From Candidatus Aenigmatarchaeota archaeon (GTDB taxonomy: Archaea > Aenigmatarchaeota > Aenigmatarchaeia > CG10238-14 > SCSR01): DNA of 28,143 nucleotides. Each line of letters starts with the position of its first letter. Within the stretch, counting starts at the first letter, position 1. The translations under genes were made by a program, and so were the position numbers. Below are positions 1 through 19,579 of this stretch, one piece after another. The notes under the pieces were generated by a model that was given only the letters and a program-made list of their open reading frames with translations, was not told the DNA's origin and did no database searches. The stretch spans positions 4,228-32,370 of the forward strand of contig JAWBTW010000004.1 of NCBI GenBank assembly GCA_039000165.1, given 5' to 3'.

Positions 1-1
1 G

Positions 2-160
2 GCTAAGGAAGAACTTGTAAGAGAAAAAGAAAAGCTCTTGAGAACTCTAGAAATTCTTGAAAAGGAAAGAAAAGAAGGAATAATAAGCCTTGCCTCTTAT
101 ACTGAAATGAAGAAGAGTATAGAGGAAAGACTACAAAAGATAGAGAAAAAACTCAAGTAG
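2..160 (+). CDS. 3' end of a gene entering the window; coiled-coil/SHOCT-like C-terminus
   Basis: Open frame 2..160 reads AKEELVREKEKLLRTLEILEKERKEGIISLASYTEMKKSIEERLQKIEKKLK*; LE..RKEGIIS...Y.E.K resembles SHOCT-type tails; converges on the 153 ORF with an 8-nt overlap. Confidence 0.75.
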   Translation, partial: AKEELVREKEKLLRTLEILEKERKEGIISLASYTEMKKSIEERLQKIEKKLK

Positions 161-2447
161 ATTCCTTTTCATTTCTCTCGATTAAATTGTTAAAAGCTTG
201 CATAGGACTTTCTTTCTTCCTTTTCATTTCCATCTTTATGTCTGAGAGCAGGTTTTTAATTCTTTCCCTTTCTCTAACTTTTTTCTTCGTTTTCTTGAGT
301 ATAAAGGCTAAGGAAAAACAGAAAAAAGCAAAAATCGAAATGTAGATTAAATCAGATTTTGTTAAAGGTAATTCAGGTAAGCTGAAAGCAGCAGAAGGCA
401 TGCTTATGTTTTGAGTTATATTTTCGCTCAGAATTGTTAAACCAATAACTTCTTCCCTGGAAAAATCTCCTGAATAAACTTTGAAAGTTAGGCTTAAAGT
501 TTCTTCTTTTGCATCGCTTGGAATAATAAAAATAACAGGAATGTCAACCTTTTCCCCTATTCCAATCTTATCTACTTTTTCTTGAAGCTTAAAGTAGTTT
601 TCAGGCAAACCTGTCAAGCTCAAAAATAAGTTTAAAATTTCAGCTTGACCTGTGTTTACCAAGGAAAATATTATCGTTCTATTTTCTCCTTTTAAAATTC
701 TTATAGTATCTGGAACTACTATCGAAACTTCTTTCTTCTTGAAAACTTGAAAAGTTAAAGACTTGTTTGAGCTTAGGTAAGAGCCTTTTTCTGCAGTTAT
801 AAAAACTTTATAAATTCCCTCGCTTTCTGGAGCCAAAAACTCGAAGTAAAATATTCCAGAAGAGTCAGAATAAGTTGAAAGATTGAGCCCAAAATCTGAG
901 CTAACTTTTATTAAAGCGTTTGAAACCAAGTTATTAGTTTCATCTTTAACCAAACCTCTAACCTTAACAACTTCTTTCAAGCTATAAGAATTTTTGTCAA
1001 AAGAAAAATCTATAACTAAAAATTTTCTTGTCCCCACTGCATAAGCTGATAAACTCTTTGTCTCTATAATAGCTAAGTTGCTAACTGTATCTATGGTTGC
1101 TACTTCTTTCTTCCATTCTGAGTTGCAAAGCTTGTTTGAGGGATTAAAGTCGCTACACTTGTAAACAACTAAATCCTTTTCGTTAGCAACCTTTCTTTCA
1201 TCATACTTCATCAAAATTTTAGCACTCGAATAAGGAAGTTTGAACTCAAAAACAAAAAGTCCTGCAACTTTTATTCCTTCCACATCGCTATCAAAGAAAT
1301 AATACTTTATAGGATCTTCAAAGCTGCTAACAGCTACGTTATAAAGGTAAAGAGTTGCTTGAGGGAAGATTACCTGCAAATCATAATTTCCAGGAACCAG
1401 AAAGCCAGAATAAGAGCCTGAAGAATCTGTAACAAACCTTTTTTCCTGCCCATCTTTTAAAAACTTTATTTCAGTGGGAATTCCTTGGTTATTAATATCA
1501 ACAATTTTCCCAAAAGCTTGAAAAACATAAGCTATTGTTTTTTTCTGTGCTACAGAATAATTTTTGTAGTTCATGGTAACTGTTAAATCATATTCTCCTG
1601 GACTCAGTTCAGGGGCTTGAAACTCTAGCTTAAAAGCATTCCCTGAAGAATACAAGTTTATCTTATCTTTTTCTATTTCTTCTGAACCCACTTTAATCGA
1701 CAAATAATCTTTTGTCAATAAAACTGGTTCCCCTCTTTCTAGAGCAGAAATCGTTAGGGTAATAGAATCTCCTGCTCTTACTTCCTTTTTATCTAAGAAA
1801 AAGCTTAACTCTAAGGGTTGCTTAACTTCAAGAGTTTTTTCAAGTTTTATTTGCTTGTTTCTGTAGCCTTGGACAGAAACGTTGACTAAAACTTCAAGGT
1901 TGTAAGTTCCTAATGTTTTTGGAACTTCTATCAGTAAAGTATAGGAAGGAGAAGAATAATACCAACCTTTTAAGTTTAACGGTTTGGTAGAAAAACTAAC
2001 CTGAGCTTCGGTTAAAGGCAAATTATCTTTTTTGATCGAAAGAACAAGCTTTGCCACTTCATCCCCCAAATAACCTTGGCTTAAAGATTCTATACTTGCC
2101 TCAAGAGTAGAGACATAAAAGTTGGAAAGAGAAGAGAATTCTCCTGAAGAATTCTTGCAAGTTAGGTTAATCGTATAAAGAAAAGGTTTCAAAGTATTTT
2201 CAAAAACATAACTAGGAATTTCTGCTCTAAAAACATCTTCTTTTGTAAAGGGGAAATCCATTTTTATAGGTTGTTCTATTCTTCCAGAAACTTGTGAAGC
2301 GTTGCTACAGTTAACTAAAATTTCAATTTTTTCGCATTCATCAGCTAAGCAAAAAACGTTTTCTGGACTAAGCCTAACTTCAAAAGCATAAGCTTTGCTT
2401 AGAATAAAGAAAAAGACAAAAGCTGAAAGAAAAAAGAGCTTTTTCAT
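153..2447 (-). CDS. Large membrane-anchored multi-Ig-domain surface protein (carboxypeptidase-regulatory-like, PGF-pre-PGF-like and NPCBM-associated/COG1470-like modules)
   Basis: Start moved to ATG 2447 (MKKLFFLSAF..., ATGA overlap with the MinD stop). Signal peptide ending AYA; beta-rich repeats (TDSSGSYSG, SDSSGIFYF, LVNTGQAEILNL); C-terminal TM helix and basic cytoplasmic tail. Confidence 0.8.
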   Translation of the reverse strand: MKKLFFLSAFVFFFILSKAYAFEVRLSPENVFCLADECEKIEILVNCSNASQVSGRIEQPIKMDFPFTKEDVFRAEIPSYVFENTLKPFLYTINLTCKNSSGEFSSLSNFYVSTLEASIESLSQGYLGDEVAKLVLSIKKDNLPLTEAQVSFSTKPLNLKGWYYSSPSYTLLIEVPKTLGTYNLEVLVNVSVQGYRNKQIKLEKTLEVKQPLELSFFLDKKEVRAGDSITLTISALERGEPVLLTKDYLSIKVGSEEIEKDKINLYSSGNAFKLEFQAPELSPGEYDLTVTMNYKNYSVAQKKTIAYVFQAFGKIVDINNQGIPTEIKFLKDGQEKRFVTDSSGSYSGFLVPGNYDLQVIFPQATLYLYNVAVSSFEDPIKYYFFDSDVEGIKVAGLFVFEFKLPYSSAKILMKYDERKVANEKDLVVYKCSDFNPSNKLCNSEWKKEVATIDTVSNLAIIETKSLSAYAVGTRKFLVIDFSFDKNSYSLKEVVKVRGLVKDETNNLVSNALIKVSSDFGLNLSTYSDSSGIFYFEFLAPESEGIYKVFITAEKGSYLSSNKSLTFQVFKKKEVSIVVPDTIRILKGENRTIIFSLVNTGQAEILNLFLSLTGLPENYFKLQEKVDKIGIGEKVDIPVIFIIPSDAKEETLSLTFKVYSGDFSREEVIGLTILSENITQNISMPSAAFSLPELPLTKSDLIYISIFAFFCFSLAFILKKTKKKVRERERIKNLLSDIKMEMKRKKESPMQAFNNLIERNEKEST

Positions 2448-3391
2448 TTCCTTAACCCCCATAAAATGCTTTTAATCCTTTCTGAAAGTGAGGAAGAGTA
2501 GGTAAAGCCTAAAAGCTTTGCAGCTATTCTTTTAAATTCCAAAGAAGCCTTAGAATAAGGGTTGAGGAAAAAGGCTGGGAACTGTTTGTGAATGCTTTTT
2601 CTTATCGTTTTATCCTCTGGTATAACTCCAAGAACAGGAAGCTCACAAGCACTTTCTATTTCTTTATAGTTTAGCTGCTCTTTTTCTTTCCTGTAGCGAT
2701 TGACTATTATTCCCAAAGGTTTTGCACCAATTTCTTTACAAACCTCTATTGTTTTTATGGCATCTATAACAGAAGGAAGCTCAGGCAAGGTTACTACTAT
2801 CACTTCCTTACAAGCTTTTATTACTTCAACGCTACTCGAATCTAAACCAGGAGGAGAATCCACTAATACAATAGAATTTTCAAAAAAGTTCGAGCTCAAA
2901 ACTTTTGAAAGGTTGGAAATTTTTGCCTCTTCAAGGGAAAGAGAGGCAGGAATTATTCTTAACCCTGAAGGATGAATGTAAATCGCGCTAAGTATGTCTG
3001 CATTATCGTTTAAAACATCGTTAAGCGTTGTAGAGAAATAGTACATACCAAGCTGCAAACCTAAGCCAGACATCTTTAAATCAGAATCCAAAGCTATTAC
3101 TTCTTTCCCAAAACTCATTAGGGCGCAAGCCAAGTTTATGGTAACTACAGTTTTGCCTACTCCACCTTTTCCAGAAATTATACCTATTGTTTTTGAGTTT
3201 TTTTCTTGTTTTAGAGTGTAAACGTTTGATTTGCCTACGACAAAAAGGTTAAGTTTGCCTTGCTGCCTTAAGCTTTCTAGGTAGCCTGAAGCTTTGTCTT
3301 TGCTTATTCCTAGAGAATTTGCTACTTGCGTTACTGACATCAAATTTGAACTTAGTAAAGATAGAATTCTTCTTTCGATATTCTCTTCCAC
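2444..3391 (-). CDS. minD: wHTH-MinD/ParA family ATPase fusion
   Basis: N-terminal ~60 aa HTH (MSVTQVANSLGISKDKASGYLESL); deviant Walker A SGKGGVGKT; DSDL; Walker B LVDSPPG; C-terminal amphipathic helix LSERIKSILWGL. Confidence 0.88.
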   Translation of the reverse strand: MEENIERRILSLLSSNLMSVTQVANSLGISKDKASGYLESLRQQGKLNLFVVGKSNVYTLKQEKNSKTIGIISGKGGVGKTVVTINLACALMSFGKEVIALDSDLKMSGLGLQLGMYYFSTTLNDVLNDNADILSAIYIHPSGLRIIPASLSLEEAKISNLSKVLSSNFFENSIVLVDSPPGLDSSSVEVIKACKEVIVVTLPELPSVIDAIKTIEVCKEIGAKPLGIIVNRYRKEKEQLNYKEIESACELPVLGVIPEDKTIRKSIHKQFPAFFLNPYSKASLEFKRIAAKLLGFTYSSSLSERIKSILWGLRK

Positions 3392-3465
3392 AATTATAAT
3401 TTGTTTTTTGGCAATATTATTTCTTTCACATGTCAGCCATATAGCGAGAAAAAGGCTTTATATAG

Positions 3466-4203
3466 CTAAAGGTTAAGGGCAACGCTTAGCTTGTCTTTTA
3501 TTTGGTTAATGTACTTAATCAAACCCTCTTCCTTTTCTAAATAAAATAAGTTTGAGTAATAGTAGTTTCCGTCCTCGCTAACTATTTCCAATTTAATCTC
3601 ATGGGGGAACCAAACCTGGTAGCTAAAGGGAATAACAACTTCTGTGTTCTTGTTTTCCTTAATTTCAAGCTTCTTTTGTTCAAAAACCCATCCTGGTAAG
3701 AAGTTGCTAGGAATAACAAAAACTTTTAGCGATTGGTTAGCTTTAACTTCAAACCTTATGTAATTATCGTAAACCCTAAAGTTCTTTACTTGAAAAATGT
3801 TTTCAGGTTTTTTCTGGTTTTCCAAGGTTATGTTTAAATATTTTTCAAGCATTTCGTTCGCGTAGTAGACCCTTAACCTTAAGGTTAGATTTTCTGTTTC
3901 TGGAGAGTAGTAAAATAGTTCAAAATTTTTCGCTTCACCTGGCATTAATGTTTCTTCTTTGCTCCAGCCGGTAAAAAGAATTTCACTAGAGTTTAAAACG
4001 TCAAGCCTGACTCTTGCTTTGTAGGCAACGCTTCCTGTGTTGAAAAATTCTAAGTTAAGCTTTAAAATTCCATCTTTTGCTTCATAAAAAATTGCTGAAA
4101 AGTTTCCTTTGAGCTCAGGTTTAATCCCAACTTTTAAAATAGATGCTGAGCTTAGGAAGAAAAATAAGAGAAAAACGACTAAGAGTAAAATAAGTGATTT
4201 CAT
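3466..4203 (-). CDS. Secreted/membrane-tethered two-Ig-domain protein
   Basis: Hydrophobic N-terminus; LEFFNTGSV...LMPGEAKNF CARDB-like motif shared with the neighbouring proteins. Confidence 0.7.
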   Translation of the reverse strand: MKSLILLLVVFLLFFFLSSASILKVGIKPELKGNFSAIFYEAKDGILKLNLEFFNTGSVAYKARVRLDVLNSSEILFTGWSKEETLMPGEAKNFELFYYSPETENLTLRLRVYYANEMLEKYLNITLENQKKPENIFQVKNFRVYDNYIRFEVKANQSLKVFVIPSNFLPGWVFEQKKLEIKENKNTEVVIPFSYQVWFPHEIKLEIVSEDGNYYYSNLFYLEKEEGLIKYINQIKDKLSVALNL

Positions 4204-4206
4204 TTT

Positions 4207-4707
4207 TCACACCAAGCTTTCAAGAAAAGTAAAGTTTGGCTTCTTAACTATAACATCTATTTGCCCTGAAAAATTTCCTATTTTTTGGTCTTTAGAAGTG
4301 TTAAGAAAAACTACTATCGTTTCAGACTGGTTTGGGTAGAGAATAAAATTGTCCTTGCTAAAGCTAACAAAAGGTTTGATCTCGCCGTAAACTTTAAAAT
4401 AAACTCTCACTCTACTTTTTTCAAAGTTTGAGATAACAACCTGCCTTCTTCCGTAACCTGATAAAGGAATTACCCCAAAGTTAAGGTTCCATGGATCTGT
4501 AGCCAAGCCTACTGTTATGTTTTTTTCCTCAAAAGGAATTATCTCTACTCTTGAAGGATAGCTTGTTACTTCAAAAGTGAAGAAAAAGTTTGAAGATTTT
4601 TGAAAGCTCATGTTTTCTGCTAACCTTTTTGGTTCAGAGTACCCTGGAAATAAGGCCATAAGCACTGCTAGAAAAATTAAAAATAAGATAAAAATTTTAC
4701 TCTTCAT
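4207..4707 (-). CDS. Secreted/anchored single-Ig-domain protein
   Basis: Start likely ATG 4707 (MKSKIFILF). N-terminal hydrophobic helix; LNFGVIP...FSKDNFILYPNQ...GNFSGQIDV Ig-like pattern; overlaps the upstream gene stop. Confidence 0.7.
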   Translation of the reverse strand: MKSKIFILFLIFLAVLMALFPGYSEPKRLAENMSFQKSSNFFFTFEVTSYPSRVEIIPFEEKNITVGLATDPWNLNFGVIPLSGYGRRQVVISNFEKSRVRVYFKVYGEIKPFVSFSKDNFILYPNQSETIVVFLNTSKDQKIGNFSGQIDVIVKKPNFTFLESLV

Positions 4708-5644
4708 GCCAAAACCTGTAAGCAACTATTATGATAATAATTATTGCTACAATAAGTATTAAAAGCCAAAATGGAAACTCGAAAGGCTTTTCAGGTTTAA
4801 CTAAAGCTAAGGCAGGAAGAATTTTTATCGTTGAGTTTTTCTCCACGCTACCTGAAATATAATTAACTCTTGCGTAAACTTTGTATTCTCCTTCTTTTAT
4901 TCCATCTAAAGGTAAAAAAGCAGTTAAAGCCTTTTTCTCCTTAGGCTTAACCTTTTCTTGAGAAGAAGATAAAGTTTTAACTAAGTTTCCTTGAGGATCA
5001 AAAATTTTTATTTCTTCTGCTCTTGCTGAAATCGTTACTGTTCCTGTGTTGAGAAAATGGATTAATAGTTGCAAGCTATTTCCTGAATAGCTTCCTGTTG
5101 TTATATCAAGAATTTTGCCTTCTCTTATAGCAGTGCCAGGAATTTTAAAAAGGATAATAACAGGAGTTATGGTTGCTATTCCTATCCCTACTTGACCAAA
5201 AGAAGATTGTGGCAAGCTAGGCTTAGGAATTATTTCAACCAGATGATAGCCAGGTTCTGCGTTTTCTGGAACGTTTAGCAAAAAGTTTATTTCTCTCCAA
5301 CCTTTTATTGCTCCGCCAAGAGTTGGTAGTTCGCCAGAAGGTTTAAGCTCAACAGGATTTGAAAAAGTTTGAACCCATGAAGAAGTTTGCTCTTCAGAAT
5401 AGTTAAAAATATAGCTTTGATAACTTGGTGTGTTAAAAAAATCTATTAAAGGTTGGGAAGGTTGAAGGTAAACTACTATGGTTTCGTCTGAGGGAGAAAC
5501 TATAAAAAAACTTACTGGTTTTGATGAACTTTTTTGAAGCTCTCCTAAATCGATAAAAGAAGGTGAAACTCCTACTGAAAAATCTTTTGCGTAAGCTGAA
5601 GAAAAAAGAATTAAACAAAAAATTGAAACCATAAGCTTTTTCAT
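4697..5644 (-). CDS. Two-Ig-domain membrane-anchored protein, DUF916/DUF3324 (WxL-interacting)/pilus-chaperone-like architecture
   Basis: Start likely ATG 5644 (MKKLM). Signal peptide AYA; FSVGVSPSFIDL start; LNVPENAEPGYH; second domain FLNTGTV...GEYKVYARVNY; C-terminal TM helix. Confidence 0.65.
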   Translation of the reverse strand: MKKLMVSIFCLILFSSAYAKDFSVGVSPSFIDLGELQKSSSKPVSFFIVSPSDETIVVYLQPSQPLIDFFNTPSYQSYIFNYSEEQTSSWVQTFSNPVELKPSGELPTLGGAIKGWREINFLLNVPENAEPGYHLVEIIPKPSLPQSSFGQVGIGIATITPVIILFKIPGTAIREGKILDITTGSYSGNSLQLLIHFLNTGTVTISARAEEIKIFDPQGNLVKTLSSSQEKVKPKEKKALTAFLPLDGIKEGEYKVYARVNYISGSVEKNSTIKILPALALVKPEKPFEFPFWLLILIVAIIIIIIVAYRFWHEE

Positions 5645-5740
5645 ATTATTAATTTGAAGTTTCAAAATTTTATTCTTGAAAAAATTATCTTTAATATTTA
5701 ACAATAATGTTTAAATATCAAGGTAAACAAAATTTTATAT
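5645..5740. promoter_or_regulatory. Divergent promoter region; TATA box TTTAAATA (5710-5717) for the 291-aa gene
   Basis: Very AT-rich intergenic gap between divergent ATGs; TATA ends about 24 nt before ATG 5741, consistent with a leaderless archaeal transcript. Confidence 0.55.
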
Positions 5741-6616
5741 ATGAAGATTGAAAAATTGGCTCTTTTAATCAGTTTAGCAAGTTTGCTGGGAGTAGCTTTT
5801 ACAGTAAGCTTAACTAAGCCAGCTTTTTCAGAAACTTCAAACCAGACAAACGTTACTGTAGAAGTAAAAGGAGTTTGCCAGATAACAGTTGCACCAACAA
5901 ACCATACCTGGTTTAGCGTTACTCCAGGCTCAGAAGGAGGAGTAAAAACATTAAACATAAGAAATAGTGGCTCAAAAAACCTTACAAATATTTATGGCTA
6001 TGTTGACACACTCACAGTAGAAACCACTAACCCAATTCCTACAGGTGATCCTTCAAGATATGCTTCCGGTGGAGTTCTTGTTTTAAACGCAGGAAGTGGC
6101 TTTTATTATGTAGGAAGGTTGGAATGGAATGTGAGTAAACCAGCAGGAGCAGGTAGTAGTTATTGTGATGCAACATGGTCAACTTGGGGTTGGTACAGAA
6201 ACGCTACTGTAGGGAATTATCTTTGGTGTATGGTTAACGCAAGCGACGGAACTTGTAATGCAAGTAACGCAAAAATCTATATAGAATCTGATGTTGACAC
6301 AGGTGACCCAAGTACAAGAGACCCAGATAAAGGTGGCAACGTTGAAAGCCAAGGTCCAGATTGGGCAATATTTGGTTTTAGTGATGGACCTTTGGCTGGA
6401 CACTGTGTAGCCTTATACAAAGACTGCACAAAAATATACATATATAAATATGATCCAACCTTTGGCGACTGCGATATGGAAAGTTTCATAAGAACAGAAG
6501 CCTTGACACCAAGCTCAGAGTTTTCAGTTAGCTTAGACGTTTGGGTACCAAAGGGAATTCCAGCAGGATGGTTAGCTTCTAATTGGCTAACTATTGAAGG
6601 AAGCTGCCCACCATAA
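5741..6616 (+). CDS. Secreted 291-aa protein, candidate major filament/surface subunit
   Basis: Sec signal peptide (AFS); N-terminal alternating strand QTNVTVEVKGVCQITV; VTPG; LNIRNSGS; C-terminal LDVWVPKGIPAG...LTIEG; 8 Cys; no membrane anchor; several N-x-S/T sequons. Confidence 0.65.
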   Translation: MKIEKLALLISLASLLGVAFTVSLTKPAFSETSNQTNVTVEVKGVCQITVAPTNHTWFSVTPGSEGGVKTLNIRNSGSKNLTNIYGYVDTLTVETTNPIPTGDPSRYASGGVLVLNAGSGFYYVGRLEWNVSKPAGAGSSYCDATWSTWGWYRNATVGNYLWCMVNASDGTCNASNAKIYIESDVDTGDPSTRDPDKGGNVESQGPDWAIFGFSDGPLAGHCVALYKDCTKIYIYKYDPTFGDCDMESFIRTEALTPSSEFSVSLDVWVPKGIPAGWLASNWLTIEGSCPP

Positions 6617-6659
6617 ACCTAAGTAAAAACCCAGAAAAACTTGGCTTCTTTTTAGGTTT
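6615..6659 (+). terminator. Imperfect hairpin with T-rich tract after the candidate major subunit gene
   Basis: AAACCTAA (6615-6622) pairs with TTAGGTTT (6652-6659); inner CCAG/TTGG; TTCTTTTT tract. Confidence 0.4.
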
Positions 6660-6700
6660 CATTCTTTTGAAATTTATTGTTAAAATTACAATTTGATATT

Positions 6701-7963
6701 ATGAAAAAGTTTCTTTACCTCTTTATCATCTCAATTGTAGCAATTCTTATTTTTAACTTCATTTCTACCTTTTTTTCTTTAAGAATTACAGGCTTTGTTG
6801 GAGCTAATTTTTCCGTTAACATTTCAGAAGTTTTGAAAGGAGAGCTTTTGATTGGCTATAAAGAGCAGTTAAACTGGGGTGAGTTTCAAAACATAACAGT
6901 AGATTTTTTAAACGTAGGAAGCGTTCCTTTTCAAGAAAAGATTGAAGTTAGAATATATTACAACTACGGTGGAAAGCTTCAACCTTTAGCTTATTATTAT
7001 GATTCCATAGTAACTTTAAAGCCAGGAGAAAGAAGAAGTTATAGAGTTAACTATCTTCCGCCTACCATAGGAACCTATTATATAAAAGTAAGGGTTCCTT
7101 ATGACGGAAAAACTGTAGAAACATGGAAAGCCTTTATAGTAATCTATATTCCTCCTCCACCTCCTGTTCAAATAATAACCCTGCCTCCCCCTGAAGTTCC
7201 TGCTCCACCTGTTGAAGTAGTTGAAACTGGAAAACCTGGAATGGAAATAGATTATCCAGAAAAAATAACTTTAGCTCAAGGAGAATCAAAACTTTTTAGT
7301 GTTATAGTTAAAAATACAGGACAAGTTTCTTTAAGGAACATGAGGCTAGCGATTTCCCTTCCTAGCTCTTTTAGCATAGAGGTGAACCCAAAAGAAATCT
7401 TTAAAGTTATACCGAACGAAACAGCAGTTTTTCTTGTTTATCTAACAATTCCGAACCAAACTTTGCCTGGAACCTATCCTTTAGATTTTGAAGTGATAAC
7501 CGACAAGATAAAGGAAGGAAGAAGAATAAGCGTAGAAGTTGTTTCGGGTTTACCAGATATAGAAAAAGAAGTAAAGGAAACGATTGAATACTATGAGTAC
7601 TTGATTTCAGAAATCCAGAATCAAATAGATGCTGCTTTTTTGAAAGGAATTGACGTAAGCAAAGCCCAAGAAAGCTTGGATAAAGCAAAAATAGCCTTAG
7701 AGCAAGCAAAAACCTATTATAACCTAGGAAAATACTTAGACACTAAGAAAAAGTTAGATGAAGTTAAAGATCACTTACAGGAAACAGTTTTCCAGCTTTC
7801 CTTAGCTTTAATTCCTGTTTATTATCCTGCTTTTCCTTTCTTACCTCTTATCCTTCTTCTGATAATAATTTTAGCAATAATCATAGCAATAATTCTTTCT
7901 AGAAGAAGAAAGAAAAAAGAAGAGCTTAAGAGACCAAAGCTTTTGAGAGGAATAGAAACTTAA
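6701..7963 (+). CDS. Membrane protein: Ig domain, Pro-rich linker, NPCBM-associated/COG1470-like Ig domain, helical stalk, TM helix
   Basis: Start likely ATG 6701 (MKKFLY). FLNVGSV...LKPGERR; IPPPPPVQIITLPPPEVPAPP; VKNTGQVSL...PGTYPL; coiled-coil; TM followed by RRRKKK. Confidence 0.75.
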   Translation: MKKFLYLFIISIVAILIFNFISTFFSLRITGFVGANFSVNISEVLKGELLIGYKEQLNWGEFQNITVDFLNVGSVPFQEKIEVRIYYNYGGKLQPLAYYYDSIVTLKPGERRSYRVNYLPPTIGTYYIKVRVPYDGKTVETWKAFIVIYIPPPPPVQIITLPPPEVPAPPVEVVETGKPGMEIDYPEKITLAQGESKLFSVIVKNTGQVSLRNMRLAISLPSSFSIEVNPKEIFKVIPNETAVFLVYLTIPNQTLPGTYPLDFEVITDKIKEGRRISVEVVSGLPDIEKEVKETIEYYEYLISEIQNQIDAAFLKGIDVSKAQESLDKAKIALEQAKTYYNLGKYLDTKKKLDEVKDHLQETVFQLSLALIPVYYPAFPFLPLILLLIIILAIIIAIILSRRRKKKEELKRPKLLRGIET

Positions 7964-7987
7964 GTTAAAAAATCAATAAAAAAATTT

Positions 7988-8242
7988 ATGGGACTTTTTT
8001 CACCTTTTGTCTACACAAACAAACAAGGAAAAAAGTTTTGGCTTCATGTTAGAGAAAAGGGAAAACAAAAAATCTATTATTTTTCAAAAGATCCTACAGG
8101 AGCTCTAAGAGATTTGCCAAAAGGTTATGAAGTAGTGGAAAACCCAGTAACAGGAATGCCTTTTCTAAAGAAAAAAGAAGCAAAGGGCTTTCTCTCAGTT
8201 TTGAAACCAAAGAAAGAAGAAAAACAAGAACAACAAGCTTAA
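7988..8242 (+). CDS. Small conserved hypothetical protein (YTNKxGKxFxLH...LPxGYEVVENxxTGxPFLKK type)
   Basis: Clean ORF with ATG; motif pattern recalled from a small uncharacterised prokaryotic family; amphipathic ends MGLFSPF and KGFLSVLK. Confidence 0.75.
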   Translation: MGLFSPFVYTNKQGKKFWLHVREKGKQKIYYFSKDPTGALRDLPKGYEVVENPVTGMPFLKKKEAKGFLSVLKPKKEEKQEQQA

Positions 8243-8267
8243 ATAGTTTGCTGTTTATCAGTATTTC

Positions 8268-8744
8268 ATGGAATTTAGCAACCATTCAGTAGTAACACTT
8301 CAAATACTTTTGAAAATGATTATAGTTAATATAATAGTCCTACTAGCACTTGTTTGTGTGCATGAGTTTGGCCATTTAACTATTGGCTTACTTACAGGCT
8401 GCTCAAGCGCAAGAATTGTTCTTTTTGACACAAGTAGAGAAGGCCCTTATACTGAGCTTTTTTGCAATTCTTCTAATTCATTAACTTATTCAGGAGGAAT
8501 TTTGTTTAGCTTGGCTTTTTCTTCGCTTTTCCTTTTTTTAAAAGAAGCTGAAGACAAAAAGCTTTTTTTTGTAGCTGTTGGTTTATCCTTAATGCTTTCT
8601 GGCCTTGACATAATAGCTTTAACTTCCACTTACTTTTCCTTTTATTTTACAACAATTTTTGGTTTTTGTCTTACAATCTTTGGAGAGTACAACATAACTT
8701 TAAACTATGTAAAAAAAGAAGAGCTTTTAAAGTACTACCTTTGA
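8268..8744 (+). CDS. Small HExxH integral membrane protein (M50/site-2-protease-like)
   Basis: TM helix ending VCVHEFGH, about 4 hydrophobic segments, candidate third ligand in SGLD. Confidence 0.6.
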   Translation: MEFSNHSVVTLQILLKMIIVNIIVLLALVCVHEFGHLTIGLLTGCSSARIVLFDTSREGPYTELFCNSSNSLTYSGGILFSLAFSSLFLFLKEAEDKKLFFVAVGLSLMLSGLDIIALTSTYFSFYFTTIFGFCLTIFGEYNITLNYVKKEELLKYYL

Positions 8745-8815
8745 AACTTAAGATTATCTTGAAAGACAAAGCTACAAGATTATTAATTTAGAATACAATT
8801 TTATATTGTGAGAAA

Positions 8816-9577
8816 TTGGCAAGGGTAATAGGGATAATTTCTGGAAAAGGAGGAGTTGGAAAAACAACTTTGACCGCAAACTTAGGAGCTTCTTTAGCAC
8901 ACTTTTTCAAAAAAAACGTTACTGTTATAGATTGCAACATAACAACTTCCCACTTAAGCCTTTACTTGGGAATTCACTTTTGTCCAACTAGCTTGAACAA
9001 AGTTTTAAGGAATGAAATCTCCATAGAAGAAGCGCTTTACAAGCATTATAGCGGAGCCAACATTGTTCCTGCCTCTTTATCCTGGAAGGATTTGGAAGGC
9101 GTGGATGTAATTCAAATTAAAGATAGTATAAAAAAGCTTTTTGACAAAACTGATATAATATTGCTCGATGCTGCTCCTGGTCTAGGAAGGGAAGCTTTAG
9201 CTGCTATAAAAGCTTGTGATGAAGTTATTTTTGTTACCACTCCTTATGTTCCTTGCGTTATGGATGTTATAAGATGCTTAGAAGTTGTGAACGAAATTGG
9301 AGTTAAGCCCTTAGGAATTGTTTTAAACATGGTTGGGAATGAAAGATATGAGATGAAAAAAAAGGAAATAGAGCAGCTTACTGGTTTGCCAGTAATTGCT
9401 TCAATTCCTTCAGACAAAAATGTTTTAAAAAGCTTAGCTTTAAGGACTCCTGTTGTTCTTTTTAACAAAAAATCAAAAGCAAGCAGAGAAATAATAAAAC
9501 TTGCTGGCAATTTGATAGGAGAAACCTATAGAGAAGAAGGATTTTTCTCAAGAATTTTCAAAAAGCTTAGGTTATAA
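8816..9577 (+). CDS. minD: MinD family ATPase
   Basis: TTG start; ISGKGGVGKTT; LLDAAPGLG; C-terminal membrane-targeting helix GFFSRIFKKLRL. Confidence 0.9.
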   Translation: MARVIGIISGKGGVGKTTLTANLGASLAHFFKKNVTVIDCNITTSHLSLYLGIHFCPTSLNKVLRNEISIEEALYKHYSGANIVPASLSWKDLEGVDVIQIKDSIKKLFDKTDIILLDAAPGLGREALAAIKACDEVIFVTTPYVPCVMDVIRCLEVVNEIGVKPLGIVLNMVGNERYEMKKKEIEQLTGLPVIASIPSDKNVLKSLALRTPVVLFNKKSKASREIIKLAGNLIGETYREEGFFSRIFKKLRL

Positions 9578-10186
9578 GAATTTGTAAATTAGGAAAGAGA
9601 TTAATAAAATTAAAACTATTGCTGAAGCTAAAATTGCAAACCTTAGGTCAAAGCTTGGCAAAGAGATTCTTGAACTTATTTTTTCTTCTTCACTTACTTG
9701 CTTGCTCTTTTCTTTCTCTTGGGCCTCTGAAGAAAAATGTTCAAGAATTTTTATCTTGAAAACAAAAGTTTTTTCTTGAGCAACTTTAATTCCTGAGTCT
9801 AAGCTTTCTGCTCTTGTTTTTATTCTTATTTCATTCTCTCCTTTTGCAGAATCTAAGGCTTTAATCAAAACTTTTACTGGAAATGCTTTAACATCACCTA
9901 CTGAAAGCTTAACGTATTCTCCTTCCTCGTAAGGAGGACCAATTTTAGAAGCGTTTAACAAAAATTCTTTTGGCTCAACTATTACAACAAAACTTTCTGG
10001 TGAAAAAGGTTCAAGAGTAACGAAACAAGAAGAGTTTTCAAGATTCCAGAAAAGAAGAGTAAATTCTTTCGTTTCTCCTTTTACCATTTCTGCATAATTG
10101 CCTTTTTGCAAGCTTCCAAAGCTTAAAGCTTTAGCAAAAGGAATAAATAAAAGGAAAAATATTGCAATCAAAATTTTCTCTTTCAT
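9572..10186 (-). CDS. Signal peptide + Ig-like domain + C-terminal TM anchor
   Basis: Start likely ATG 10186 (MKEKILIAIF), just after the adhesin stop; AKA cleavage site; KGETKEFTLLFWN; charged linker; C-terminal TM. Confidence 0.7.
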   Translation of the reverse strand: MKEKILIAIFFLLFIPFAKALSFGSLQKGNYAEMVKGETKEFTLLFWNLENSSCFVTLEPFSPESFVVIVEPKEFLLNASKIGPPYEEGEYVKLSVGDVKAFPVKVLIKALDSAKGENEIRIKTRAESLDSGIKVAQEKTFVFKIKILEHFSSEAQEKEKSKQVSEEEKISSRISLPSFDLRFAILASAIVLILLISFLIYKFL

Positions 10187-10187
10187 T

Positions 10188-12941
10188 TCAATCACACAAC
10201 GAAGAGCAATTTCCACATATCGTTATGGTTCCTTTATAAATTCCTGCATAAACGCTTGGTACAGAAAGCCAGTAGTAGAGTGTTAAGTTTGAGTTTGGTG
10301 GAAGAGCAGAATAAAGAAGCTTGTAATAATAGTCAAGAGGATAAACTGTGCTTGGGTTGTAAATATTGCTTGAATTGCTCCAGCTTAAATTGCCAACAGC
10401 TATAAAGGAATTGTAAGTTGAATTTGTAAGGTCTGTTCCTTTAATCCAAATGTTCGGACTGCATGCTCCTATAACTGTTATGTTGTATAAATTGTTTTCA
10501 TTTCCAGGGGCAGGGTTGTTTTCTGCTGGAGTGCTTGGAGTTAAAAAGCCAAAGTCTATAAAGTCCCAAGACAAAATCAAGCTTTCTATTTCTATTCCAG
10601 AAACAATAGTTATTGTTGAATTTTGAGTGTGGTTTTGCTGAACTTCTGTTAAAGAAGAATTAAAAAGTACACCAATTTTCCAGACCGAATTAACATCACC
10701 ACTTGCATTAACAACCCAAGTTAGATTGCAGAATTCATTCTCATCTAAAGGATTTGTTGGGCAAGCTTTCGTTGCTAAAGCAAAAGCTTCTTGAATAAAA
10801 AATGGTTTATCTCCTTCAGTTGTGCTTATTGGTGTATCTGGAAAAGGAGAAGAAGCGTTATATCTTACGGTTCCGTAAACGTTGCCACAACTTCCAGCTT
10901 TACAGTAAACTGTTGCATTTATAATAAAGGTAGAATTCTGAGGAACGTTGTAGCTTAAAGGCGGTGATGAAAGCCAAGCTTCCAAATAAGGGGGTGAAGG
11001 AAATGGACATACTGTTAGGTTGTTGTAAATTATGTTGTAAGGTGAAGAAGTTCCTTTTCTATAGATAAACTCTACACAATCTTTTGACTGATACTTTGAA
11101 TTTGGATAAACGTTATCTCCTGCGATATCTGTAGTAATCCAGACAGGATTTTCCCAACTTCCAGAATTATTCCTGTAAATTATGTTCCATCTTTTATTAT
11201 TAGTTGTGTCGTTTTGCTGCCATAAAACAAGAGGATAGCCTAAGGAATTGGTTGTTACACTCGGATATCGAGCTTTGCTTGTATCTATTATAGTATCAAT
11301 TCTTTCTCCGGTCCAGGTTGAACCATAATCAGAGCTTGAGTTAAAGTATATTTTATTATCTGAAGAATAATAGGTAACATAAACTTTGCTTCCATTATAA
11401 GTTATGCTTGGGGTAAAGAATTCAGTTTGGTCTGAAAAAATTACATTTCTGTACGGAGACCAGCTGACTCCTGAATTAGAAGAATTTTTATAAGTGATAA
11501 AATAGTAAAGGATACCAGTATCGTAACTTTTTTCCCTGGCAACAATATGTATTCTATCGTTTGAGCTTCCGTTTCCGTCAACAGCAATAGAAGGCTCGTA
11601 ATAATAAAAAGCAAACTGAAGTATTTGTCCTACATATGTTTCATACCCATCAAATACAACTTTTATTGGACCCCATGTATTCCCAGCATCGCTCGAATTA
11701 AAAAACTCTATATCAGTTGCATCTTCATTATCTTGATAAACAACATAAATTCTTTGCCCCCTTCTTTCAACGCTAACGTATTCTCCTATCCCACTTGAAT
11801 AAGGAACTTTCTCTTCAAAGCTTTCTCCGTTGTTTTCTGAGATATAAATTACAACTCCTGAAGTTCCATTTCTATAAGCTATAGTTATATTATTACCATC
11901 GCAAGAAATTGAAGGCAAGCCTTTTGAGCCAGTTGAATTAACTATCGTGTTATTAATTATCCAAGTTTTACCGTTATCTATGCTTCTAGCATAACTTATA
12001 GTATTAGCATCGTATTTCCAAACAATATGTATATAATTTTTCCCATCTCTACAAATTGCTCTTTGGTTTGGAGAAAAAGGGACTGTTGTGGTTGTTGGAA
12101 AATAGGGTGTAGTTGTATAGCTGAAAGGATTTTGACAAGAACTTCCATTCCAGTTATTATTAGTGTCATTGACATAAACGCACCACCTTATAGTACACCC
12201 AACAGTTGAGTTTATTACTACACTAAAGTTACTCCATGCTTCAGTTCCAGACAAGCTCATACCTGAAATATTTTGTAACCTCCCTGTACAATTATCAAAG
12301 CTGAAAATGGCATAGCTTAACCCAACATCATCAGTCCATTTCAAAGAATGTTGTACTACACTTCCTGCTACAGTTGAGTTCGTTGAATTAAGAGAATATT
12401 GAGGTGGTTGTATGTCTTGAACTGCTATTATTCTTTCTTGTGATACGTTTATCTCGCCTGCTGAATCGTTAGCATACTGCTTCCATACAATTTTTTTCCC
12501 TGCACAAGCTGTCGGAATGATTTGAGTTTCGTTGTGCCAAATAGAATTAACATTATTTCTTGGTGTAAAAGAGATGTTTACCCAGGTATCACAATTTACT
12601 CCTGAAGCATTCCAAGAAAACCAAGTATAGTTTATTCCTAAGCCTTTTCCTGCTGCACCAACAACATCAGTCCAGTTAACACTAAACTTTACTGCATCTC
12701 CTGGGTTTGGGTTTGTACTATTTTCAGAAGGGGTAAACCATTTTGGGGCTTGGTTCTCGCAGCCATTAGTTACTATTCCATCATCGTTGAACCAGCCGGG
12801 ATTGCAAGTATAAGTGCAACTTCCTGTAGAAGAGCAAGTACAACTTCCTCCACTTCCTAAACAGCACCAGGCAGCCAAAACATTTTTTATACTAATAAAG
12901 AAAAGGACAAAAAAAATGAATGCAAGCCATTTTTTTCTCAT
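10188..12941 (-). CDS. 917-aa secreted adhesin-like protein: Cys-rich N-terminus, Ig-like repeats, Asp-box (BNR) beta-propeller, C-terminal pilin/WxL-like domain
   Basis: ATG 12941 with GTGGTG SD; signal peptide VLA; Asp boxes SIDNGKTW, SENNGESF, SSDAGNTW, SSNSGVSW, SSDYGSTW; C-terminal IDFGFLTP...YWLSVPSVYAGIYKGTITI; no TM anchor; many sequons. Confidence 0.8.
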   Translation of the reverse strand: MRKKWLAFIFFVLFFISIKNVLAAWCCLGSGGSCTCSSTGSCTYTCNPGWFNDDGIVTNGCENQAPKWFTPSENSTNPNPGDAVKFSVNWTDVVGAAGKGLGINYTWFSWNASGVNCDTWVNISFTPRNNVNSIWHNETQIIPTACAGKKIVWKQYANDSAGEINVSQERIIAVQDIQPPQYSLNSTNSTVAGSVVQHSLKWTDDVGLSYAIFSFDNCTGRLQNISGMSLSGTEAWSNFSVVINSTVGCTIRWCVYVNDTNNNWNGSSCQNPFSYTTTPYFPTTTTVPFSPNQRAICRDGKNYIHIVWKYDANTISYARSIDNGKTWIINNTIVNSTGSKGLPSISCDGNNITIAYRNGTSGVVIYISENNGESFEEKVPYSSGIGEYVSVERRGQRIYVVYQDNEDATDIEFFNSSDAGNTWGPIKVVFDGYETYVGQILQFAFYYYEPSIAVDGNGSSNDRIHIVAREKSYDTGILYYFITYKNSSNSGVSWSPYRNVIFSDQTEFFTPSITYNGSKVYVTYYSSDNKIYFNSSSDYGSTWTGERIDTIIDTSKARYPSVTTNSLGYPLVLWQQNDTTNNKRWNIIYRNNSGSWENPVWITTDIAGDNVYPNSKYQSKDCVEFIYRKGTSSPYNIIYNNLTVCPFPSPPYLEAWLSSPPLSYNVPQNSTFIINATVYCKAGSCGNVYGTVRYNASSPFPDTPISTTEGDKPFFIQEAFALATKACPTNPLDENEFCNLTWVVNASGDVNSVWKIGVLFNSSLTEVQQNHTQNSTITIVSGIEIESLILSWDFIDFGFLTPSTPAENNPAPGNENNLYNITVIGACSPNIWIKGTDLTNSTYNSFIAVGNLSWSNSSNIYNPSTVYPLDYYYKLLYSALPPNSNLTLYYWLSVPSVYAGIYKGTITICGNCSSLCD

Positions 12942-12951
12942 AACACCACTT

Positions 12952-14025
12952 TCATCCAAAGCAAGCAATAAAAGTTCCACAACAACTACTTGAAGAAGCA
13001 GGAACTGCTTGGCATGTGTTTGAGCTTAAGTAAGAGTTTGGATAAGGAGAAGGACAGCTTACTGTACAAGATGTTAAAATGTAGCAATTTCCTACGGTAC
13101 ATTCAAGCAAATAATTATTGTAGTTGCAAGAGCAAGTCCCTCCAACATTGCAAGCTAAAGTATAGCCAGATGCGTCTTCCCAATAAAATTCTGAATTTTT
13201 CTCTTCACCAGGAGCAACGCTTCCTATATGCTGCTTCAAAGTTATTACTGAATTGTACTGCCCCTCGTCACTAACATTTAACTCATAATCATAATCACTT
13301 AGCCAATCAAGCCTTATTCTCCATAAAACCAAATCCTTGTAATTCCTTTTGTGAACTTCGTACTTCTTTTCTTTCAAATAAGTTGAGTTGAAAATAGCAT
13401 CTAAACCATGCAAATCATAGACTTCAACTTCATTCAAAGTTGAGTTTATAACAAAAGCATTATCTTCATAAGAATTGTTTATTTTTATCTCAGTAGTTTT
13501 CCACCAAAACCAAAGGTCATCAATAGCTTTTGAACCAGTATTATAGCCATAAAAACTTACGCTAAGCTTTCTGTCATGATCTTTAAGGAAATACCTAACC
13601 TTAAAGTAAAACTTATAACCTCCAGGTGCAGTATATTCCTTTGAAGTACCGTTGAGTTCAACCCATGTTGCTTCTTCGTTTGTTGCGTTAGTCCATGTTA
13701 ATTCAAAAGAATCTGTGCAAATTCCTTCGAATTTAAAATTTCCTGCAGTTGCATTAATGCAAATCCAATTTTTGCTCCACCAGTTTGGTAAGTCTTGAGT
13801 AATTTGAAGGCCTGAAGTTTTATTTATCCAGTAAACCTCTTGATCGTTCCAAATTTTAAAGGTTTGTGTTGTTGAATTGTACTCAAGAAAAGTAGAATTT
13901 CTTGGTTTACATTGAGCTTTAACTAAAGTAAAATTGCTTTCAACTAATTTATCTTTTTTCATCTCTATTAAATTCAAAGCCAAAGCCAAAACGAACACAA
14001 GTACTATTATTTTTGATATTTTCAT
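12952..14025 (-). CDS. Secreted/N-anchored beta-rich protein with Cys-rich C-terminal tail
   Basis: Hydrophobic N-terminus; Trp/Asn-rich beta-sandwich-like core; 11 Cys in the last ~70 aa; 10 nt upstream of the adhesin ATG. Confidence 0.7.
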   Translation of the reverse strand: MKISKIIVLVFVLALALNLIEMKKDKLVESNFTLVKAQCKPRNSTFLEYNSTTQTFKIWNDQEVYWINKTSGLQITQDLPNWWSKNWICINATAGNFKFEGICTDSFELTWTNATNEEATWVELNGTSKEYTAPGGYKFYFKVRYFLKDHDRKLSVSFYGYNTGSKAIDDLWFWWKTTEIKINNSYEDNAFVINSTLNEVEVYDLHGLDAIFNSTYLKEKKYEVHKRNYKDLVLWRIRLDWLSDYDYELNVSDEGQYNSVITLKQHIGSVAPGEEKNSEFYWEDASGYTLACNVGGTCSCNYNNYLLECTVGNCYILTSCTVSCPSPYPNSYLSSNTCQAVPASSSSCCGTFIACFG

Positions 14026-18494: not shown

Positions 18495-18781
18495 GCAGGA
18501 GGCTAGGTCGCGGAGCTAGGCCTTCCGTGCTGCTGAAAAAAGCAGTGGCAAATGGTCTATATGGCCGACCGAAGCCTGAGGGCGGCATAAGTTTTCAGAG
18601 AGGTCCAAGCTTCCGACTGAGAAGCCTCGCCTTTCAGGGTGGGTAGCCTAACGAAACCGAGGAGGTCCGGAAGGAAGCACTCGTAAGTTAGGCTGTCTCA
18701 TGCTTGAAAGATACGGGGTGGAGAAGGAAGTTTGGAGCAACCTTTCTGGAAGCTTATGCCCACCGAAGGCGTGCCTCCTGC
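18495..18781 (+). ncRNA. ffs: Signal recognition particle (7S/SRP) RNA
   Basis: GC-rich island; terminal helix GCAGGAGGC/GCCTCCTGC; long helix 5 (GGCATAAG/CTTATGCC, TCCAAGCTTCC/GGAAGTTTGGA, AGCCTAAC/GTTAGGCT); helix 8 signature AGG-TCC-GGAA-GGA-AGCA. Confidence 0.93.
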
Positions 18782-18821
18782 AATTTCTAAAAATTTAAAT
18801 TTTAAAAAGGAATTAAGTGAT

Positions 18822-19571: not shown

Positions 19572-19579
19572 GTGATACC

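Follow-up and report, generated by a model that had tools for sequence, protein, structure and literature searches.

The first 14,025 nucleotides of a 28,143-nucleotide stretch of Candidatus Aenigmatarchaeota archaeon DNA (contig JAWBTW010000004.1, positions 4,228 to 32,370 of the forward strand; hereafter the window) hold a cluster of genes for secreted and membrane proteins, labelled g01 to g13 after the open reading frames (ORFs) within positions 153-14025. With somewhat more confidence than doubt, we read this locus as the genes for a Sec-dependent assembly system in which a chaperone assists donor-strand joining, and whose product would be a surface fibre or an adhesin display. The reading is built around two neighbouring genes, g05, whose predicted fold resembles that of membrane-anchored and periplasmic pilus chaperones, and g06, whose product is predicted to accept a strand from g05. 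An earlier reading made from the letters alone (the sequence-only reading below) had likened the locus to donor-strand systems, including WxL loci, and this likeness is borne out by the fold of g05, the geometry of the modelled g05-g06 complex and the C-terminal module of the adhesins.

The g05 gene (4697..5704, minus strand) encodes 335 amino acids (aa), with a probable start at Met21, and its product comprises a signal peptide, two beta-sandwich domains and a C-terminal transmembrane (TM) segment. The AlphaFold2 model, made from a 12-sequence alignment, has a mean pLDDT of 85.7 and places the beta-sandwiches at residues ~40-188 and 196-295 and the C-terminal helix at 312-334. When this model was compared with the PDB by Foldseek, the best matches were two WxLIP structures, namely 9i25_C (E 3.4e-11, TM-score 0.57 on the target), which is entitled 'WxLIP from Enterococcus faecium locus A bound to long WxL', and 9i1y_A (E 2.8e-10); CfaA, DraB, FimC, CupB2, CsuC and SfaE followed at ~1e-7, among other two-domain immunoglobulin (Ig) proteins. 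VIA gave the same ranking: WxLIP scored Z 13.2 (9i1y_A; 228 residues aligned, root-mean-square deviation (rmsd) 6.1) and Z 13.0 (219 aligned, rmsd 5.3), the next hit was a one-domain match about 2 Z lower at Z 10.9, and the best two-domain matches at comparable rmsd were Caf1M (Z 9.6, 184 aligned, rmsd 6.2), DraB, CfaA and FimC (Z ~9). By its model, g05 is structurally closest to WxLIP, the DUF916-DUF3324 chaperone, with the chaperone-usher chaperones behind it. We propose that g05 is a membrane-tethered donor-strand chaperone with its donor strand at about residues 174-179. A word-based search for g05 homologues gave 222 matches, and among the 120 listed none carries a Pfam domain; these are named 'hypothetical protein' and come from Aenigmatarchaeota, except one labelled Methanomethylicia. 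An exhaustive profile search found 3844 representatives at E <= 0.001, of which the best 150 were inspected.

The g06 gene (5741..6616, plus strand), called '5741' in the sequence-only reading, encodes a secreted, unanchored protein of 291 aa that is rich in cysteines and N-glycosylation sequons. Its AlphaFold2 monomer is compact (pLDDT 87.4) and consists of a strand at residues 36-45, an Ig core formed by ~46-131 and 260-291, and a beta domain inserted at ~132-258, where most of the eight cysteines lie. The pairing of g05 ('4697') with 5741, which the sequence-only reading had put forward for multimer prediction, was modelled with g05 residues 40-305 and g06 residues 31-291, using our own alignments, three runs and three controls. 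Binding was predicted, with a complex score of 0.87 (runs 0.88, 0.86 and 0.87), and the best of the three controls scored 0.00; of 157 solved complexes 116 attain the mark applied here, as do 2 of 215 mismatched pairs, figures that are rough in this case because our own alignments were used, and in the wording of the tool the model supports binding and does not show it. At least 95% of contacts are common to the runs, the partner pLDDT is at least 87, and the interface of 241-260 contacts involves both g05 domains.

The contacts with the lowest predicted error pair g05 residues 175-178 with g06 residues 282-285, with indices rising together (parallel), and g05 residues 174-178 also pair with g06 residues 55-48, with indices opposed (antiparallel); g05 residues 45-47 contact g06 residue 46. 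From the parallel and antiparallel pairs we infer that a strand closing domain 1 of g05 is flanked by two strands of g06, the first of its core (48-60) and the C-terminal one (281-288), and is parallel to the latter. The inserting segment of g05 is hydrophobic, alternating and conserved in the family. In the model, this geometry is that of donor-strand complementation as in chaperone-usher chaperones and in ElrE, the WxLIP of the Elr pilus discussed below, the parallel orientation included. That g05 binds g06 by strand complementation is, on the strength of these models, probable.

Whether g06 goes on to polymerise is less certain, and we hold the evidence that it forms a fibre to be finely balanced. 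Just past the signal peptide, all 16 aligned g06 homologues carry an alternating T-x-T-[VI]-x-V-x-[VI] strand, a pattern to be expected of a donor strand. Monomer models of strand-exchange pilins put the N-terminal strand in the protein's own groove; in the complex model it is the g05 strand that occupies the g06 groove. In a second VIA comparison the top matches to g06 were self-complemented FimA monomers, led by 6r74 at Z 8.1 (124 of 157 residues aligned, model range 33-290) and followed by 2m5g (Z 7.8), 6r7e (Z 7.5) and 5lp9, 5nkt and 6erj (Z 6.9-7.1), and the aligned regions include the g06 N-terminal strand; Z values up to 8.1 fall in the range that VIA rates as common for unrelated beta-sandwiches. 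The core of g06 is thus described here as pilin-like in the sense of a predicted resemblance to FimA, not of membership. The wide VIA search was non-discriminating, returning generic PapD/MSP-type Ig domains at Z 6-7.8 and WxLIP at Z 6.6. TasA (Z 5.7), AbpA (Z 5.3) and CanA (Z 5.3) scored below FimA, and a TasA-like bundling pilus was dropped as a candidate on account of this weaker structural match. A feature search of the Atlas offered no more than leads, namely WxL clusters (0.77 and 0.78), DUF1102 (0.76) and SCPU (0.76).

The same complex could serve static surface display, in which g05 would be a permanent membrane anchor holding single g06 molecules, and perhaps the adhesin as well, by strand complementation and no fibre would form. 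The size of the modelled interface, spread over both g05 domains, and the compact g06 monomer suit such a pair, and WxLIP was first proposed as an anchor for WxL proteins (Hassan et al. 2023, PMC10599100; here and below, published systems are described from the accessible parts of the cited sources). In a static pair, however, the conserved alternating strand at the N-terminus of g06 has no obvious role, the nearest structures to the g06 model are those of a polymerising pilin in its self-complemented state, and for WxL loci the idea of an anchor has given way to a pilus, which has been demonstrated (bioRxiv 10.64898/2026.10.17.759780). We consider static display rather unlikely.

Assembly of a fibre or display of adhesins would be served by g12 (10188..12980, minus strand, 930 aa), a secreted and unanchored adhesin candidate with a Cys-rich N-terminus, Ig-like repeats, an Asp-box-like propeller region and a C-terminal module (~660-930). 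The sequence-only reading took g12 for an unanchored beta-propeller adhesin; it is indeed unanchored and secreted, and the propeller is only partly confirmed, by S-x-D-x-G-x-T-W Asp-box-like repeats read by eye from the translation and by one relative named 'sialidase family protein' at its source, with no family matched by g12 in a Pfam scan. The C-terminal module with variable payloads is well supported. Homologues of 492, 919, 1619 and 1880 aa, which have different N-terminal parts, share the last ~270 residues of g12 at 48-97% identity to the window's copy. Altogether the module occurs in 131 longer proteins of 479-2000 aa; of the 120 listed, 105 have it near-full, and in each of these 105 its end is at most 15 aa from the C-terminus. 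The payloads recognised by Pfam include PQQ propeller, FG-GAP/VCBS, discoidin, parallel beta-helix, LamG, DUF2341 and WD40 domains, and every source name that states a taxon gives Aenigmatarchaeota or Aenigmarchaeota. Some of these proteins (P0288, P0300 and P0330) combine the module with a nucleoporin-autopeptidase (PF04096) or Hint (PF07591, PF14890) domain, which suggests that some adhesins of this family carry self-cleaving payloads. The neighbouring g11 (9572..10216, minus strand, 214 aa with a probable start at Met11) encodes a protein that has a signal peptide, a single Ig-like domain and, beyond an acidic linker, a C-terminal TM segment. The gene follows the g12 homologue in all four fetched loci with flanking sequence (L013, L014, L017 and L020); among the 80 loci described next, g11 and the g12 C-module each occur in five and together in three (L047, L078 and L101).

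Conservation was followed in 61 related genomes (25 of them high-quality), in 14 loci fetched around g06 homologues, and in a g05-motif scan with a 12-row alignment as query and one genome per species, which gave 102 confirmed loci of which 80 were kept and which overlaps the 14 fetched loci; these related genomes are not independent, and the synteny counts describe the group and carry no statistical test. Homologues of g06 are present in 29 of the 61 genomes, from several families of one order, and in 13 of the 25 high-quality genomes. The g05 profile matches 31 of the 61 genomes (27 strongly, with E below 1e-20) and 15 of the 25. Both genes are found in 25 genomes, where they lie at most ~1.7 kb apart in 21; in the other four they are ~20 kb apart on one contig (two genomes) or on different contigs (two genomes). 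The order g05-g04-g03 stands beside g06 in 11 of the 14 fetched loci, and the three loci without this triad are stand-alone g06 copies, two of which are second copies in their genomes. A g01 homologue was found in 9 of the 14 and at least one MinD gene likewise in 9.

The g05-motif loci gave a similar picture. Downstream of g05, g03 occurs in 76 of the 80 loci and g04 in 75, and g06 lies within 4 kb of g05 in 55, with roughly half of the 25 misses at contig ends. Where the sequence continues for 1200 nt or more past g03, as it does in 60 loci, the next genes include a winged helix-turn-helix (wHTH), MinD or g01 gene in 51 (g01 in 46, MinD in 33). By their titles these loci belong mostly to Candidatus Aenigmatarchaeota, many being entitled only 'uncultured archaeon'; under submitters' labels, some are titled Nanohalarchaeota or Nanohaloarchaea, and single ones Altiarchaeales, Euryarchaeota, Nanobdellati and 'uncultured bacterium'. 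The g05-g04-g03 triad is nearly invariant, and g06 is usually alongside. Because the genes are syntenic across several families, as the locus proposed by the sequence-only reading implied, the cluster is far beyond chance association.

Several results weigh against a chaperone-assisted donor-strand system. No Pfam family matches g05 at E <= 0.1, and g05 profiles of 12 and of 130 sequences find no WxLIP or chaperone among PDB sequences. Only 7 of 130 g05-family members match PF11797 (WxLIP_HBD; best E 9.9e-5), P0260 falling short of the threshold with 22 bits where 28.9 are required; PF06030 is missing from the 25 families listed for the 130 members. For g06, no known pilin family was matched in Pfam, NCBIfam or PDB sequences (best E 1.8), Foldseek against the PDB returned nothing at E <= 0.001 (FimA probability 0.54), and all structural matches stay at Z <= 8.1, within the range common for unrelated folds of this kind. 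The compact and confident g06 monomer may represent a stable, non-polymerising protein held by g05. A WxLIP-WxL complex is present in the PDB (9i25), so that the complex score could partly reflect fold-level memory, the sequences themselves being unlike. The profiles of g06 and the g12 C-module show no similarity (hhalign probability 0.4%) and BLASTP of g06 against g12 gave nothing, and an acceptor groove in g12 is therefore an assumption. No terminator or anchor subunit was identified in the cluster. Finally, g07 and a ~1950-aa surface protein look like generic envelope stalks, which would fit an envelope locus as well.

The last point bears on a different account of the cluster, as an S-layer-type envelope locus in which g06 would be the lattice or coat, g07, g01 and the ~1950-aa protein would be membrane stalks, and the small Ig proteins would be envelope assembly factors. 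We propose g07 (6677..7963, plus strand, 428 aa) to be a stalk-like envelope protein: it has a signal/anchor segment, Ig and NEW3 domains (PF10633, E 1.1e-9), a Pro-rich linker, a coiled-coil-like stretch, a C-terminal TM segment (TM at 12-30 and 389-407) and a basic tail. The gene for the ~1950-aa protein is represented in the window by its 3' end (2..157, plus strand; the last 52 residues), the remainder lying upstream of the window, and the cluster therefore extends beyond the left window edge. In a tblastn comparison, positions 2-157 are 100% identical to a close relative's 1954-aa protein. As judged from a 95%-identical relative, the ~1950-aa protein has three NEW3 and MG2 domains (Pfam), a g07-like C-terminal part, a C-terminal TM segment and a coiled-coil-like cytoplasmic tail. 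Its homologue directly adjoins a g06 homologue in L009, L011, L015 and L016. The gene converges on g01 and is split by contig ends, running upstream on the same contig and then onto another.

Membrane-anchored S-layer stalk proteins such as SlaB resemble the architecture of g07 and the ~1950-aa protein, both of which combine Ig/NEW3 domains with a coiled-coil-like stretch and a C-terminal TM segment. An envelope role would also suit the eight sequons of g06 and the single copy of the cluster in its own genome. An essential layer, however, would be expected in more genomes than the roughly half of those searched in which the cluster was found (29 and 31 of 61; 13 and 15 of the 25 high-quality); a chaperone-like fold with strand-insertion geometry is a hallmark of fibre systems, and interchangeable payloads on one module fit fibre display better than a lattice. 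An envelope locus is in our view quite improbable.

The genes that follow the triad point to a cytoplasmic component. Encoded behind g03, g02 (2444..3391, minus strand, 315 aa) is a winged helix fused to an archaeal MinD ATPase, with an N-terminal HTH_5 match (Pfam, E 7.6e-5) and a stop codon that overlaps the start of g01; g10 (8816..9577, plus strand, 253 aa) is an archaeal MinD ATPase. These are the two MinD ATPases of the sequence-only reading, and both pass the NCBIfam cut-off for archaeal MinD (TIGR01969, 225.2 bits each, cut-off 201.75); both have the deviant Walker A motif GKGGVGKT and amphipathic C-termini. The g01 gene (153..2462, minus strand, 769 aa) encodes a signal/anchor helix, several Ig-like and CarboxypepD_reg domains (PF13620, E 9e-15), a C-terminal TM segment (TM at 9-27 and 704-722) and a basic cytoplasmic tail of ~47 aa; basic cytoplasmic tails are thus present on g01 and g07. 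A g01 homologue lies downstream of g03 in 46 of the 60 flanked loci. In one family, the g01 homologue of L016 (4712-7108, minus strand) carries the wHTH fused at its N-terminus by way of a TM helix, and BLASTP places the wHTH likewise at the N-terminus of the g01 homologue in L011 (2993-5386, minus strand); in L009, L013, L020 and L022 it is a free ORF of 63-90 aa. A fusion of the L016 type would have cytoplasmic ends and a large outside domain. Because the wHTH is fused alternatively to MinD or to a g01 homologue, these arrangements argue that wHTH, MinD and g01 act together at the membrane, and we propose that g01 is a membrane platform linked to MinD. A plain transcription-factor role of the wHTH was set aside as less likely, given its fusion to a membrane protein in L016.

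Mere co-location would be another explanation, in which the surface-protein genes and the MinD/wHTH/g01 genes (for example a division or partition module) are functionally unrelated neighbours. The 783-kb genome has six MinD-family paralogues (tblastn; contigs C4, C5, C9, C13 and C15), many for its size, and archaeal MinD genes often stand beside unrelated membrane proteins (PMC4858521). Such a coincidence sits poorly with a wHTH, MinD or g01 gene after g03 in 51 of 60 loci, with the overlap of g02 and g01, and with a wHTH fused to either MinD or the surface-exposed g01 homologue, and we take it to be most improbable. Going a step further, the conserved linkage and the domain fusions raise the possibility, which we put forward tentatively, that MinD controls the placement of assembly sites.

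In the preferred reading, the parts of the locus would work in the following order. Emerging from Sec, g06 would be captured by g05, whose domain 1 ends in a strand (~174-179) that would enter the g06 groove, the step that was modelled with controls. Next, the chaperone strand lodged in a g06 groove would give way to the conserved N-terminal strand of another g06, and the outcome would be a thin, glycosylated and disulfide-stabilised fibre. For adhesins of the g12 family, the invariant C-terminal module might be the point of attachment and the membrane-anchored g11 a dedicated partner, and g04 and g03, encoded behind g05, might be further chaperone, adaptor or anchoring subunits. On the grounds of linkage and domain fusion, the wHTH, the two membrane-binding MinDs and the bitopic g01 would form a membrane platform, and this platform may set where, or how many, assembly sites form.

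Of the two closest described systems, one is the Elr/WxL pilus of Enterococcus faecalis and other Bacillota, which is reported to be confined to Bacillota and consists of ElrE (WxLIP, a DUF916-DUF3324-TM chaperone), the WxL pilins ElrD and ElrC, the tip adhesin ElrA with a C-terminal WxL module and the LPxTG terminator ElrB (Sleutel et al., bioRxiv 10.64898/2026.10.17.759780). The strand donated by ElrE is oriented parallel to the last strand of the subunit, as in chaperone-usher systems, and WxL tip adhesins combine an invariant attachment module with a variable payload (bioRxiv 10.64898/2026.10.17.759780). The archaeal locus shares the chaperone architecture (g05 has a signal peptide, two beta-sandwiches and a C-terminal TM segment, with WxLIP as its best structural match), the modelled entry of a strand from the end of g05 domain 1 into the g06 groove parallel to the last strand, a small secreted subunit with an N-terminal amphipathic strand (g06), large adhesins whose C-terminal module is invariant and whose payload varies (the g12 family), and the lack of an usher. 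The two systems differ in several respects. Neither g05 nor g06 matches PF06030, PF11797 or PF13731 at threshold, and g12 does not match PF13731; the g06 core looks PapD/FimA-like, with a ~125-residue insert, and not WxL-like; and the g12 module is neither WxL nor detectably related to g06. The cluster translations contain no LPxTG protein (a sortase was not searched for), and a murein-less archaeon would need an anchor other than LPxTG/sortase. The g04-g03 pair and the MinD/wHTH/g01 module are not among the Elr components named in the accessible text, and the host is an archaeon here and a member of the Bacillota there.

A second parallel is provided by the Pam pili of Candidate Phyla Radiation (CPR) bacteria, with the pilins PamA and PamB, the membrane-anchored PapD-like chaperones PamC and PamD, the RbmA-like anchor PamR and the tip protein PamT (Troman et al., bioRxiv 10.64898/2026.03.03.709456 / PMC13278184); homologues are reported only in CPR bacteria (PMC13278184). 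Pam pili share with the system proposed here donor-strand assembly after Sec export in an ultra-small, host-dependent organism that lacks an outer membrane. Their chaperones, too, bear a TM helix at the C-terminus, a single operon encodes several Ig proteins that are chaperones or anchors, and the pilins contain paired cysteines. The Pam operon encodes two anchored chaperones and a two-domain TM-anchored protein proposed as terminator (PMC13278184), to which g03 or g11 might correspond; where g03, g04 and g11 are concerned, these parallels offer a lead to their roles by analogy and not evidence. MinD is not named in the Pam neighbourhood in the accessible text, and the two systems are set side by side by description only. 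Some of the archaeal relatives also have g06 in pairs that recall the major/minor pilin pairs of the Elr and Pam systems: L009 has two tandem g06 paralogues (9973-10842 and 11186-12076, both minus strand), and two g06 matches each, some partial, were found in G012, G015, G024, G039, G047, G055 and G059.

Going by the models, the locus shares with the chaperone-usher systems (Fim, Pap, Caf1, CFA/I and Csu) a two-domain chaperone whose strand is parallel to the last strand of the subunit, g05 being similar to Caf1M, DraB, CfaA and FimC at Z ~9; the g06 model also resembles self-complemented FimA, at Z values common among unrelated beta-sandwiches. In contrast to those chaperones, g05 is membrane-anchored rather than periplasmic and the host is a monoderm archaeon; PapD_N (PF00345) and usher families are absent from Pfam scans of the 29 window ORFs. 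The known archaeal donor-strand filaments, namely the Sulfolobus threads, the bundling pili (AbpA and a Tat-dependent haloarchaeal form) and the Pyrodictium CanA cannulae, are described as chaperone-free (PMC12518558; bioRxiv 10.64898/2026.10.17.759780). They resemble the present case in being archaeal, in building on Sec- or Tat-exported beta-sandwich subunits that donate strands and in not being type IV pili, whereas the present locus encodes a dedicated chaperone-like protein. By the models, then, the locus would work like a membrane-anchored-chaperone donor-strand system, although its proteins match none of the WxL, DUF916/DUF3324 and PapD sequence families at threshold.

In type IV pili and archaella a cytoplasmic ATPase motor acts with a platform, whereas here the fibre would assemble outside the membrane, and MinD would therefore have to be connected across the membrane, with g01 and the wHTH as candidates for this connection. 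In studies of Haloferax MinD4 and MinD2, MinD-family ATPases are reportedly thought to control the assembly or position of surface filaments. FleN/MinD ATPases accompany archaeal type IV pilus and archaellum loci (Makarova et al. 2016, PMC4858521). No report of MinD with a donor-strand system, and no archaeal chaperone-assisted donor-strand system, was found in the literature searched, which did not extend to the preprint supplements and the wider taxonomic screens these may hold. The sequence-only reading had called the system undescribed; this no longer applies to the class of mechanism, which the Elr/WxL and Pam preprints describe for Bacillota and CPR, and it stands, as far as their accessible text goes, for an archaeal system and for the MinD module.

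A larger picture is conceivable and, in our view, rather doubtful. Aenigmatarchaeota and related DPANN archaea would own a third lineage of chaperone-guided donor-strand-exchange pili, independent in sequence of chaperone-usher and WxL systems; as a unique trait, a wHTH adaptor and two MinDs would dock on the bitopic multi-Ig g01 to place and count Sec-dependent fibres from inside the cell, and the fibres, bearing interchangeable adhesins, would be an organ for seizing the host.

Chaperone-guided donor-strand exchange was long regarded as a Gram-negative speciality. Two 2026 preprints extend it to Bacillota and to CPR bacteria, each system being confined to its group (bioRxiv 10.64898/2026.10.17.759780; PMC13278184). 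The chaperone-assisted route has so far been demonstrated in bacteria only, and a matching chaperone-subunit pair in Archaea, if true, would mean that the principle spans both prokaryotic domains. It would also give a concrete, testable candidate for host attachment by DPANN archaea, a field with few molecular handles. With the MinD/wHTH/g01 module comes a puzzle, namely by what means an ATPase in the cytoplasm could govern an assembly that takes place outside the membrane, and the many payloads that the adhesin family combines with a single attachment module form a catalogue of candidate host-binding domains.

The g04 gene (4207..4725, minus strand, 172 aa) encodes an N-terminal hydrophobic anchor (TM 11-29) and one PapD/ASH-like Ig domain, with a weak Pfam match to TMEM131_like_N (E 0.025) and an hhalign probability of only 38% against g05; we propose that it is an accessory protein within the invariant triad. 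The g03 gene (3466..4203, minus strand, 245 aa) encodes a protein in which two beta-sandwich regions lie between a signal peptide and an amphipathic segment at the C-terminus. Judging from the profile comparison (hhalign probability 93%, E 2.9e-7), the g03 N-domain is a paralogue of the g05 C-domain, and g03 is taken as an accessory protein, possibly an anchor or terminator.

On the plus strand, g08 (7988..8242, 84 aa) is a small basic cytoplasmic protein with no family match. It has homologues in L014 and L017, and in L010 a homologue (10489-10680, plus strand) directly follows a stand-alone second g06 copy, which hints that g08 is linked to g06 rather than to MinD. The g09 gene (8268..8744, plus strand, 158 aa) encodes the HExxH membrane protein already noticed in the sequence-only reading, an M50B-like (site-2-protease-like) mini-peptidase that matches PF13398 (Peptidase_M50B) at 28.0 bits against a cut-off of 26. 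Homologues occur in 6 of the 14 fetched loci, beside a MinD gene in 4 of these, and g09 might process anchors or signal peptides of cluster proteins. The Cys-rich secreted protein of that reading is g13 (12952..14025, minus strand, 357 aa), which has an N-terminal signal and 14 cysteines and, among the loci examined, a homologue only in the close relative L017.

As a whole, positions 153-14025 hold 13 complete, tightly packed ORFs with small gaps or overlaps, arranged in three blocks: g05-g04-g03-g02-g01 on the minus strand (5704 to 153), g06-g07-g08-g09-g10 on the plus strand (5741-9577) and g13-g12-g11 on the minus strand (14025 to 9572). The sequence-only reading had the three transcription blocks right and counted 12 genes, one fewer than found and than its own list of parts adds up to. 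Its statements on signals and anchors hold in the hydropathy profiles, with an N-terminal hydrophobic signal in g01, g03, g04, g06, g07, g11, g12 and g13, a g05 signal sequence that begins after the conserved internal Met21, a C-terminal TM segment in exactly four proteins (g01, g05, g07 and g11) and none in g06, g12 and g13. The F/L-x-N-x-G-S/T/Q motif that it had seen in several proteins recurs as [FLIVY]-x-N-x-G-[STQ] in g01, g03, g05, g06 (twice) and g07 (twice). Cysteines and sequons number 8 and 8 in g06 and 25 and 42 in g12.

No meaningful family match was obtained in Pfam or NCBIfam for g03, g04, g05, g06, g11, g12 or g13, and the two MinDs are the sole NCBIfam matches in the cluster. 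The 29 window ORFs scanned with Pfam contain no type IV pilus or archaellum family, and the N-termini of the cluster proteins are ordinary hydrophobic signal sequences and not class III, in agreement with the earlier statement that class III signal peptides and PilB/PilC or archaellum genes are lacking. A type IV pilus was dropped as an explanation, its machinery being absent from the locus; T2SSE-type ATPases are present elsewhere in the genome (6 matches). The host genome (783 kb, 25 contigs, 91.6% complete) contains the cluster in a single copy.

The window is AT-rich (GC 0.30-0.39). With the g05 start at the conserved Met21, ~96 very AT-rich bases (window 5645-5740) separate the divergent starts of g05 and g06, and both promoters must therefore share this short stretch. 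Beyond the cluster, the window from 14.4 to 28.1 kb is occupied by housekeeping genes, including those for a flavin reductase, AMMECR1, acetyl-CoA synthetase, eRF1, a tRNA-intron endonuclease and tRNA-Val, and at 18732-20179 by a second M50-like ORF and a Lon_C-like ORF.

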